Source of the DNA: Candidatus Aenigmatarchaeota archaeon
Lineage (GTDB): Archaea; Aenigmatarchaeota; Aenigmatarchaeia; GW2011-AR5; JAGGXF01
Reading direction: 5' to 3'
Assembly (NCBI GenBank): GCA_029932645.1
Contig: JAOZPR010000009.1
Coordinates: 1-25,679, forward strand
DNA: 25,679 nucleotides
In this document: piece by piece, positions 21,500-23,829 of the stretch
Layout of the letters: every line of letters starts with the position of its first letter
How positions within the stretch are numbered: position 1 is the first letter of the stretch
Notes under the pieces: model-generated
Told to the model about the DNA's origin: nothing
Databases searched by the model: none
Seen by the model: the letters and a program-made list of their open reading frames with translations, nothing else
Program-made: the position numbers and the translations under genes

Positions 21500-21609
21500 G
21501 CCGAGATGACAGAGTCAGGTCAAAACGATATTAAAAACGAGATTAAATGTGCTCGCCTCGAGAGCGAGTGAGCCTTGTGCTCGCGCAGGTTCAAATCCTG
21601 CTCTCGGCG
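21500..21609 (+). tRNA. tRNA-Ser(CGA) with a 23-nt D-loop intron (21524-21546)
   Basis: Acceptor GCCGAGA/TCTCGGC+G; anticodon arm CTCGC-CT-CGA-GA-GCGAG; long variable arm; T-arm GCAGG-TTCAAAT-CCTGC. BHB-like GGTC-AAA...GATT-AAA; the spliced D-arm is ACA-GAGTCAGGTCAAA-TGT. Confidence 0.93.
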
Positions 21610-21676: not shown

Positions 21677-21938
21677 GCTGGGATAGCCAAGTCACTGGCC
21701 TTTCTCTTTGCAAAGAGAACGCCTTTTTGGCAAACTTAGGTGTGCTCTCGCAAATATTATTAGGAAAGGCTGCTTGAAAGGTTCACGGCGCTGGCCTTGA
21801 GTTTCAATGATGACACGGCTTGACTCTGATTTCGGCGGAGATGACGAGTTACTTAGTTCAGAGAAATGAGAAAGCCAGTGTGCCATGTTCGTACAAAAAC
21901 GGTGGAAGCACGCGGGGGTTCGAATCCCTCTCCCAGCG
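21677..21938 (+). tRNA. tRNA-Ser(UGA) with three introns: D-loop 21694-21778 (85 nt), anticodon 37/38 21802-21872 (71 nt), variable arm 21889-21907 (19 nt)
   Basis: Acceptor GCTGGGA/TCCCAGC+G; anticodon stem CTGGC/GCCAG with CT-TGA-G|A; T-arm GGGGG-TTCGAAT-CCCTC. Each intron is bounded by a BHB (CAAG-TCA/CTTG-AAA; CTTG-AGT/TGAG-AAA; CCAT-GTT/GTGG-AAG). Removing them gives an 87-nt tRNA collinear with the neighbouring tRNA-Ser(CGA). Confidence 0.9.
21802..21872 (+). ncRNA. Box C/D guide RNA encoded in the tRNA-Ser(UGA) anticodon intron
   Basis: Box C ATGATGA 21807-13, 12-nt guide, D' CTGA 21826-29, C' ATGACGA 21841-47, 11-nt guide, D CAGA 21859-62, terminal stem TTTC/GAAA. Confidence 0.8.
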
Positions 21939-22788: not shown

Positions 22789-22912
22789 GCGATGGTAGTC
22801 TAGAAACCTTTTTCCAGCTTCGCTGCAAAAGCGTTTACGGAAAAGGTTGGATAATCTGGTAGGACACTACCCTGCCACGGTAGCGACCCGGGTTCAAATC
22901 CCGGCCATCGCA
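22789..22912 (+). tRNA. tRNA-Gly(GCC) with a 51-nt D-loop intron (22804-22854, position ~15/16)
   Basis: Acceptor GCGATGG/CCATCGC+A; anticodon arm CTACC-CT-GCC-AC-GGTAG; T-arm CCGGG-TTCAAAT-CCCGG. Relaxed BHB GTCT-AGA/GGAT-AAT closed by AACCTTTT/AAAAGGTT; spliced length 73 nt. Confidence 0.93.
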
Positions 22913-23582: not shown

Positions 23583-23743
23583 GCAGAGGTAGCCAAGTCT
23601 GGTCAAAGGCGTAGGACTCAAGTAAACTTTTAGAAAAAGTTTAATCAAAATATTACTTGAGTTTTGAGTTTTGCACCGCAAAACCATGATAAGAGAAATC
23701 CTATCCATTAGTTGGTTCGTCGGTTCGAATCCGGCCCTCTGCA
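23583..23743 (+). tRNA. tRNA-Leu(CAA) with a 75-nt canonical 37/38 intron (23623-23697)
   Basis: Acceptor GCAGAGG/CCTCTGC+A; D-arm GCC-AAGTCTGGTCAAA-GGC; anticodon stem TAGGA/TCCTA with CT-CAA-G|A; variable arm; T-arm GTCGG-TTCGAAT-CCGGC; spliced length 86 nt. Confidence 0.93.
23653..23692 (+). ncRNA. Intron-encoded single C'/D'-type guide element antisense to its own pre-tRNA anticodon
   Basis: Guide TTACTTGAGTT (23653-63) pairs with 23615-25. D'-like TTGA at 23664-67, stem GTTTTGC/GCAAAAC, C'-like ATGATAA at 23686-92. Confidence 0.65.
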
Positions 23744-23777: not shown

Positions 23778-23829
23778 ACCCCGATGATGACGTTTGGCAT
23801 GATTTCATGTCACGGGCGGGCTGAGGGGT
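23778..23829 (+). ncRNA. Free-standing box C/D sRNA, predicted guide for 16S rRNA Cm1402 (E. coli numbering)
   Basis: Terminal stem ACCCC/GGGGT, box C ATGATGA 23784-90, box D CTGA 23821-24. The D guide ACGGGCGG is complementary to the universally conserved 16S CCGCCCGT. Confidence 0.82.

Follow-up and report, generated by a model that had tools for sequence, protein, structure and literature searches.

A box C/D RNA in the anticodon intron of an Aenigmatarchaeota tRNA-Ser(UGA) gene and its predicted target at the 16S decoding site

The stretch of DNA considered here, 25,679 nucleotides (nt) of contig JAOZPR010000009.1 from the Candidatus Aenigmatarchaeota archaeon assembly GCA_029932645.1, is referred to below as the window. 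It contains a tRNA-Ser(UGA) gene whose anticodon intron, 71 nt long, has the complete layout of an archaeal box C/D small RNA (sRNA). Judging from comparisons of sequence, this intron probably is such an sRNA and guides, in trans, the 2'-O-methylation of 16S ribosomal RNA (rRNA) at the equivalent of E. coli A1408. An initial annotation, made from the letters of the window, had described the intron as harbouring a complete box C/D RNA that apparently targets rRNA in trans, and that central claim is supported by the results presented here. All coordinates are window positions unless a contig is named. The source genome, G000, comprises 718,593 bases at a completeness of 89%, and a second genome of the same genus, the congener and sister species G001, was used for comparison.

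Anatomy, conservation and host gene of the intron-borne RNA

Read from end to end, the intron (21802-21872) is UUUC-A-AUGAUGA-CACGGCUUGACU-CUGA-UUUCGGCGGAG-AUGACGA-GUUACUUAGUU-CAGA-GAAA-UGAGAA; its parts are listed in Table 1. The boxes, both guides and the terminal stem are where the initial annotation had put them, and the span it had given coincides exactly with the whole intron. Between the terminal stem and the sheared GA there is a 3-nt bulge, A-A-U, and with it the geometry of a kink-turn. A strict box C/D regular expression, run over the G000 genome and over 20 first-order Markov shuffles, returned a single match in the genome, which is this intron, against a mean of 0.0 in the shuffles; with a relaxed expression the figures were 1 and 0.3. 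Rfam, searched at the gathering threshold and at E<=10, matched no box C/D family on the intron. The hairpin that the initial annotation had drawn between D' and C' did not survive: no pairing between these boxes is conserved across orthologues, and the 5-base-pair (bp) AUUUC/GAGAU pairing that appears there in the minimum free energy (MFE) fold would use up both of them.

When the host gene was compared by BLAST with 31 related genomes, the intron itself was matched in six, and the same cassette occupies the same intron in G002, G006, G007, G009, G013 and G015, which represent four families. The D boxes of these orthologues and of G000, seven sequences in all, were located by a script that looks for an NNGA whose 3' neighbours are complementary to the nucleotides preceding the C box. 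A stem directly abuts the D box in 7/7; it is 3-8 bp long and its sequences differ, with complementarity kept. Equally constant (7/7) are the 3-nt bulge before the GA of the C box, the 12-nt spacer between C and D', the D' box CUGA and the C' box AUGAnGA. The pair between position 6 of the C box and position 1 of the D box is G-C in four sequences, A-U in two and A.A in one, and is therefore Watson-Crick in 6/7. The changes in the stem and in this pair follow the pattern of covariation that a box C/D kink-turn should show. In a larger set of 33 family members, a 7-mer of the xUGA type lies exactly 12 nt upstream of D' in 32, and one more is shifted by 1 nt.

No two orthologous lineages share a D guide sequence, and the length of the C'-D spacer varies between 10 and 27 nt. 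The anticodon stems that flank the intron vary by lineage (CUGGC, CUAGC, CUUGC, CCGGU, CCAGA), although the D' guide and D' box between them are nearly invariant. A GGCG(G/A) motif in the D'-C' loop is shared by all seven orthologues, which belong to one order, but in a phylum-wide sample of 30 sites it is present at no more than 9. Followed through the orthologous introns, the layout of the boxes, whose conservation the initial annotation had proposed as a test, is kept in six relatives from four families and has been lost in G001. The intron sequence of G000 is identical in an independent metagenome assembly (X2).

Neither ARAGORN nor Rfam detects the host tRNA as it stands in the window, and ARAGORN in intron mode wrongly calls the gene a tRNA-Ala with a 188-nt intron. 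Excision in silico of the D-loop and anticodon introns only gave no ARAGORN call, and excision of all three introns gave tRNA-Ser(tga), 88 nt long, with a normal cloverleaf and a class-II variable arm, GUGC-CGAA-GCAC once the third intron is removed. Since the call needs three excisions, we take the host to be a three-intron tRNA-Ser(UGA) gene. Comparison with orthologues shows that the D-loop of G001 is uninterrupted, the 85-nt insert being absent, and that the third insert differs in G001 and G002 with its flanks retained. Standard annotation of tRNAs and sRNAs overlooks host gene and guide alike. At the anticodon a relaxed bulge-helix-bulge can be drawn by eye, the MFE fold being similar: C32-G35 (21796-21799) are pairable with UGAG at 21867-21870, and AAA at 21871-21873 forms the 3' bulge. 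This splice-site helix and the terminal stem of the G000 sRNA are directly stacked.

Genes for L7Ae (C9:37567-37845) and Nop5 (C27:7373-7984) are intact in G000, and the splicing endonuclease EndA and RtcB are present as open frames. Fibrillarin was found in 30 of the 31 related genomes and is intact in G001. These protein genes, together with the anatomy, its non-random occurrence, its conservation with kink-turn covariation and the complementarity to 16S, can be read directly, and from them we infer the following course of events. The sRNA would be transcribed within pre-tRNA-Ser(UGA). L7Ae would recognise two sites, the kink-turn of the terminal C/D boxes and the internal C'/D' motif, on which Nop5-fibrillarin would assemble to form a ribonucleoprotein. 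The splicing endonuclease would release the intron by cutting at the relaxed bulge-helix-bulge; RtcB would join the exons and probably circularise the intron, and the excised RNA would accumulate. The 12-nt D' guide would pair in trans with GUCAAGCC[AU] of 16S helix 44, and a 2'-O-methyl group would be placed opposite guide position 5, on the decoding-site nucleotide equivalent to A1408. According to the parts of PMC7994747 drawn on here, archaeal tRNA introns and many C/D sRNAs are known to circularise.

The D' guide and its site in 16S helix 44

The family consensus of the D' guide, CAUGGCUUGACU, forms 10 contiguous Watson-Crick bp with GUCAAGCCAU, using its positions 2-11 as counted upstream from D', and this pairing is found in the 16S of G001, G002 and G006. 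The significance of guide-target pairing was judged from 3000 shuffled guides compared with the 16S and 23S of G001, counting contiguous all-Watson-Crick runs, and a run of 10 bp was matched by 36 of them. With a scoring that allows G.U pairs, helix 44 is the top site for the consensus guide in each of the three 16S sequences, and 10 of 100 shuffles score as high (about 15 kb searched). The sequence CCGCCCGUCAAGCCA was present in helix 44 of 6/8 relatives whose 16S was fetched first and of 5/5 fetched later. Inspection of the 33 family members shows that conservation of the guide fades at positions 10-12, exactly where the complementarity to 16S stops. The nucleotide opposite guide position 5 (N+5) is the A that follows GUC in helix 44, which we take to be A1408 in the E. 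coli numbering. In the portions of Dennis et al. 2015 (PMC4644070) on which we rely, two guides, sR13 of N. equitans (for 16S A1395) and sR129 of S. acidocaldarius (for G1395), have the same helix 44 site as their predicted target, given there as 'A/G1395 (E. coli position A1408)'; as described in those portions they are independent genes and not intron-borne, and they are likened to the present RNA by site, not by guide sequence.

The alternative D' targets offered in the initial annotation were set aside; in the case of the tRNA-Ser D-loop, AGUCA is all that is shared, and this is not conserved. Adjacent to the helix 44 target, on its 5' side, 16S reads CCGCC, to which the GGCGG of the D'-C' loop is complementary (5 bp), and on paper the loop could add pairing to this sequence. 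Because the motif is lineage-specific, as the phylum sample indicates, we treat this extra pairing as an idea.

For the D guide no credible target was found in the rRNA of relatives beyond shuffled controls. Its best all-Watson-Crick run in their 16S and 23S is 6 nt, which 2957 of the 3000 shuffles match. The initial annotation had fitted this guide to 16S at about 111-121; the same-genus 16S reads UGCUCAGUAAC there, with a 6-bp run and a mismatch at N+5, and the proposal was dropped. Two candidates in the 16S 3' domain, GGCUAAGU (N+5 = A1492) and AACAAGGUAGC (mismatch at position 4), were no better than shuffled guides and were rejected; neither site is shared by the D guides of the orthologues. 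A scan of the whole G000 genome for the complement of either guide gave no site in a recognisable RNA gene. The D guide is probably idle in this lineage.

The wider family and competing explanations

The 13-mer GGCUUGACU+CUGA, which joins the end of the guide to D', was found in 10 genomes when 70 from the order were searched, and the reversed control gave 2 hits. Among 371 genomes of the phylum, taken as Aenigmatarchaeota by their record titles, it occurs in 102, and the reversed control gave 10 hits in 9 genomes. Thirty of the phylum sites were picked irrespective of context; 19 lie in tRNA-Ser(UGA) introns, 10 in 16S rRNA introns, and 1 is a chance hit. A scan with a longer pattern, one genome per species, yielded 43 loci, a set selected for GGCGG. 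Eight of these are bacterial chance hits; at the other 35 the element follows a CUUGA(G/A) anticodon loop, and nearly all are titled Candidatus Aenigmatarchaeota or uncultured archaeon.

In the 16S introns of six genomes from the same order as G000, namely G014, G022, G030, G011, G027 and G051, the same guide stands in the same register to its D-type box, 80-170 nt from its target. The intron of the first three lies between AAGUCGUAA and ACAAGGUAGCC, with GUCG/CGAC flanks and 3-nt bulges, and its splicing restores the canonical sequence; that of the last three lies just upstream of GAAUACGUCCC. The tRNA-Ser loci viewed in genomes with a 16S-intron copy were tRNA-Ser(GCU). The 16S introns of these six genomes, in the 3' domain, are loci L002, L004 and L042 (G030, G022 and G014) and L006, L093 and L094 (G011, G027 and G051), and the A1408 guide was seen in further 16S introns at L125, L131-L135, L138-L140 and L142. 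The insertion sites are at about E. coli 1365-1380, 1500 and 1512, and the introns often hold a second guide to the 16S 3' end. In G051 the guide is preceded, within the intron, by a long open reading frame.

The tRNA-borne form occurs in three architectures: (a) plain, as in G000; (b) plain, the D guide being aimed elsewhere in 16S; and (c) circularly permuted. Two D guides of form (b) were recognised by eye: GUCGGAGGUGAA+UUGA is complementary to the 16S 3'-terminal UCACCUCC, and GUGAUAGGCGGA+AUGA to CCGCC, its N+5 being presumably C1402. The permuted form, represented by 24 sequences, reads leader-NNGA-hairpin-AUGAnnn-guide-CUGA-loop-AUGAnGAG. Analysis of 22 of them showed a hairpin that stops exactly 1 nt short of the C box in 21 and a Watson-Crick pair (U-A or A-U) between C-box position 6 and D-box position 1 in 20; in 21 the leader is paired to the 3' strand of the anticodon stem and to the 3' splice junction, with U39 opposite position 5. 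Three rows in these counts come from ends whose extraction was imperfect, and in the two remaining sequences no hairpin was obtained. Such U39-directed pairing to the host tRNA is confined to permuted relatives of other orders. After C', some permuted introns (L062, L082 and L057, titled Aenigmatarchaeota) read GUCCUUUAAGU, which is complementary to the universal 16S sequence ACUUAAAGGA (around E. coli 909-918, as we take it) and is followed by no D-type box.

One account of this distribution, to which we give roughly even chances, is that a decoding-site guide cassette, consisting of the A1408 guide and a lineage-specific guide, is obligately intron-borne throughout the phylum and has moved between endonuclease-spliced introns, namely that of tRNA-Ser(UGA) and those at at least three sites in the 16S 3' domain. 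In the permuted form, which many lineages have, the second guide would act on the host pre-tRNA (U39) before splicing, and the first on the ribosome. If this is true, the intron-borne cassette would be an archaeal counterpart, and possibly an origin model, of eukaryotic intronic small nucleolar RNAs (snoRNAs), and modification of the decoding centre would be tied to transcription of a tRNA or of the very rRNA being modified.

A number of observations weigh against a working 16S guide in G000. The D box is CAGA rather than CUGA, the fold z-score of the intron is a modest -1.91 (8/200 shuffles were equally stable), and the central helix of the bulge-helix-bulge consists of just 2 Watson-Crick and 2 G.U pairs. 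Guide position 10 is C in G000 and U in 31/33 family members, and one base is missing at the 5' end of the guide in a contig from another metagenome, representing another population. In G001 the intron is short, with its ends retained and 22 unrelated bases in place of the boxes, and GGCUUGACnnnGA is found nowhere in that genome, the fibrillarin of which is intact; the guide is therefore dispensable and can be lost. The G000 frame for fibrillarin (C27:6696-7339, minus strand, beside Nop5) is split, relative to G001, by a 1-nt deletion in an A-run, which could be an assembly error or a real lesion. Both 16S and 23S are missing from the G000 assembly, and the rRNAs of relatives served as target sequences for that reason. 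Against the 16S of the same genus the G000 guide forms 8 contiguous bp, a run matched by 866 of 3000 shuffles, and with G.U pairs allowed other rRNA sites score equally high. The initial annotation had assigned the D' guide to GUCAAGCC in helix 44, with N+5 at the A1408 equivalent. That assignment stands for the family consensus, with its 10 bp, and not for the G000 guide taken alone; it rests on homology within the family and not on this one sequence. Eight bp covering positions 2-9 are within the range reported to be workable in vitro for archaeal sRNA-protein particles.

Since the G000 copy is slightly eroded, we keep, as an unlikely alternative, the possibility that it is a genuine family member in decay, non-functional in this genus, so that the intron is spliced and methylation is no longer guided. 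The U-to-C change at position 10, shared by just 2/33 family members, would fit such a relic, as would the 1-nt deletion in the other population, the G001 intron, which has kept its ends but none of the boxes, the frameshifted fibrillarin and the orphan D guide. However, nothing in the four boxes, the two spacings or the terminal stem departs from an intact, canonical state, the 8 bp at positions 2-9 persist at a length reported to be workable in vitro, and the intron is identical in X2; the lesion in fibrillarin is a single homopolymer base and may be an assembly error, and at a distance of 2 kb there is another box C/D candidate, the boxes of which are perfect. Less probable still is a role in cis, in which the kink-turn RNA would serve its own pre-tRNA, either by guiding methylation in cis, as in tRNA-Trp, or by acting, with L7Ae bound, as a scaffold for folding or splicing of the three-intron precursor, and the match to 16S would be incidental. 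Cis use does exist within the family, given that the leaders of the 24 permuted relatives are directed at their own tRNA with U39 opposite position 5 in 21/22; the guide in the intron of the neighbouring tRNA-Leu(CAA) gene is likewise aimed at its own C34, and the stacking of the sRNA stem on the splice-site helix in G000 would also suit such a role. Yet in G000 there is no complementarity between either guide and the pre-tRNA that carries it; the longest pairing is 5 bp (GGCUU/AAGCC), which orthologues with other anticodon stems do not keep, and the statement of the initial annotation that the guides do not match the host anticodon arm is accordingly upheld. Moreover, the D' guide is invariant although the host stems vary, and 16S introns, where no tRNA is involved, carry this guide too. 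As for chance assembly of short motifs in an AT-rich intron, the C', D and D' boxes are indeed short and the D box is non-consensus, but 0.0 matches to the strict pattern are expected per genome, the element is conserved in four families with covariation, and its 13-mer is present in 102/371 genomes as compared with 9 for the reversed control; we regard chance as refuted and its probability as negligible. A guide acting in trans on 16S remains the reading that we prefer.

Precedents, significance and neighbouring elements

A box C/D sRNA resides in the pre-tRNA-Trp intron of euryarchaea (Haloferax volcanii; Pyrococcus sR50; Clouet d'Orval 2001 and Singh 2004, as related in the sections of PMC7994747 and PMC4090602 used here), and the 2014 review PMC4090602, in the same sections, calls it 'a unique example', acting on its own tRNA. 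As in the tRNA-Trp case depicted there, a complete box C/D RNA fills a bulge-helix-bulge intron at 37/38 and is made by transcription of the tRNA gene, and the leader of the permuted relatives aims at U39, one of the two tRNA-Trp targets (C34 and U39). Unlike that case, so far as these sections portray it, the host is tRNA-Ser(UGA) in another phylum, the guides of G000 match no host exon, and the conserved guide is apparently aimed at 16S in trans. The second precedent is the 66-nt intron of the N. equitans elongator tRNA-Met, from which a stable and abundant box C/D-like RNA is derived (Randau 2012, PMC3491384); the passages of that paper used here also report a permuted C/D sRNA and dicistronic tRNA-sRNA genes. 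Like the present RNA, it belongs to a DPANN archaeon and to a tRNA intron with box C and D elements. However, the N. equitans intron has one mutation in its C box, and in those passages it is assigned no target and neither phylum-wide conservation nor copies in rRNA introns are described for it. Given these two precedents, an intron-encoded box C/D guide is of a known kind; what is new is the host, the predicted rRNA target in trans, the conservation across the phylum, the copies in rRNA introns and the permuted forms. Searches of the literature accessible as full text, which leaves subscription-only papers outside its scope, turned up no box C/D RNA reported from a tRNA-Ser intron or from an rRNA intron of archaea.

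In eukaryotes, intron-encoded box C/D snoRNAs (summarised in PMC7994747) are rRNA guides expressed from introns of host genes of the translation apparatus. The present RNA resembles them in that a predicted rRNA methylation guide rides in the intron of such a host gene. It differs in that the host is an endonuclease-cut tRNA or rRNA intron and not a spliceosomal pre-mRNA intron, and in that release would be by EndA and RtcB, probably as a circle, as opposed to debranching and exonuclease trimming. It thus offers a concrete archaeal example of the eukaryote-typical placement of a guide RNA in a host-gene intron. Guides in archaeal tRNA introns have so far been essentially the self-modifying tRNA-Trp and one uncharacterised N. 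equitans tRNA-Met case. Here a different tRNA intron carries a guide that is apparently aimed at the decoding site and is conserved across a DPANN phylum of very small genomes, and in sister lineages the same guide sits in introns of the very rRNA targeted. This suggests a reason for the persistence of long tRNA and rRNA introns in streamlined genomes and presents a testable case of guide-RNA mobility through intron transposition.

Table 1. Positions in the window of the host gene, of the parts of its anticodon intron and of two nearby guide-like elements
Feature	Position	Strand	Remarks
tRNA-Ser(UGA) host gene, three introns	21677..21937	+	acceptor GCUGGGA/UCCCAGC; anticodon loop CUUGAG..A
D-loop intron, 85 nt	21695..21779	+	borders +/-1; not in G001; excision required for tRNA call
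Anticodon intron (37/38), 71 nt, the box C/D RNA	21802..21872	+	between G37 (21801) and A38 (21873)
Terminal stem, 5' strand UUUC	21802..21805	+	pairs with GAAA 21863-21866 (4 bp)
C box AUGAUGA	21807..21813	+	exact consensus; preceded by A21806
D' guide CACGGCUUGACU, 12 nt	21814..21825	+	positions 2-9 upstream of D' complementary to GUCAAGCC, 16S helix 44
D' box CUGA	21826..21829	+	invariant in all orthologues; part of the phylum 13-mer
D'-C' loop UUUCGGCGGAG	21830..21840	+	contains the conserved GGCGG
C' box AUGACGA	21841..21847	+	AUGAnGA in 7/7 orthologues
D guide GUUACUUAGUU, 11 nt, orphan	21848..21858	+	sequence differs in every orthologous lineage
D box variant CAGA	21859..21862	+	GA needed for sheared pairs kept; C1 pairs with C-box G6
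Terminal stem, 3' strand GAAA	21863..21866	+	pairs with UUUC 21802-21805
Probable third intron, variable arm, 20 nt	21885..21904	+	borders +/-1; excision required for ARAGORN call
tRNA-Leu(CAA) intron module	23653-23663 (guide); 23664-23667 (UUGA); 23686-23692 (AUGAUAA)		guide UUACUUGAGUU, UUGA, hairpin GUUUUGC/GCAAAAC, one base, AUGAUAA
Free-standing box C/D candidate downstream of tRNA-Leu	23779-23828		CCCC-G-AUGAUGA...CACGGGCGGG-CUGA-GGGG; perfect C, D and terminal stem

Two other guide-like elements are found about 2 kb from the intron of tRNA-Ser(UGA). The tRNA-Leu(CAA) gene (23583-23743) has a 75-nt intron (23623-23697) that holds a permuted kink-turn module, the guide of which is complementary to the gene's own anticodon loop, with C34 opposite position 5. 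The module has the same arrangement and register in G001, G017 and G018, is degenerate in G002, and lies 5' of the anticodon in G009 and G015. The free-standing candidate at 23779-23828 has a D guide that pairs with 16S CCGCCCGU over 8 bp, its N+5 being what we take to be the C1402 equivalent. Rfam gives just weak sR53 and sR1 matches to it (15 bits), and no copy with at most 1 mismatch was found in the 69 other genomes of the order, the 15 hits in 13 genomes being coding or random (reversed control, 7).

Inserts were also noticed in other tRNA genes of the window. The true start of tRNA-Gly(GCC) is 22789 (22789-22912) and its D-loop is interrupted by a 45-nt intron (22804-22848), so that ARAGORN calls the 3' part only. 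The D-loop of tRNA-Ser(CGA), at 21500-21609, carries an insert of 28 nt. Ends of the CCUUU(U)C...GAAAGG type are common to the D-loop introns of tRNA-Gly and tRNA-Ser(UGA) and to T-loop inserts of G006 and G007, which suggests that introns with these ends form a family of related, possibly mobile, introns.

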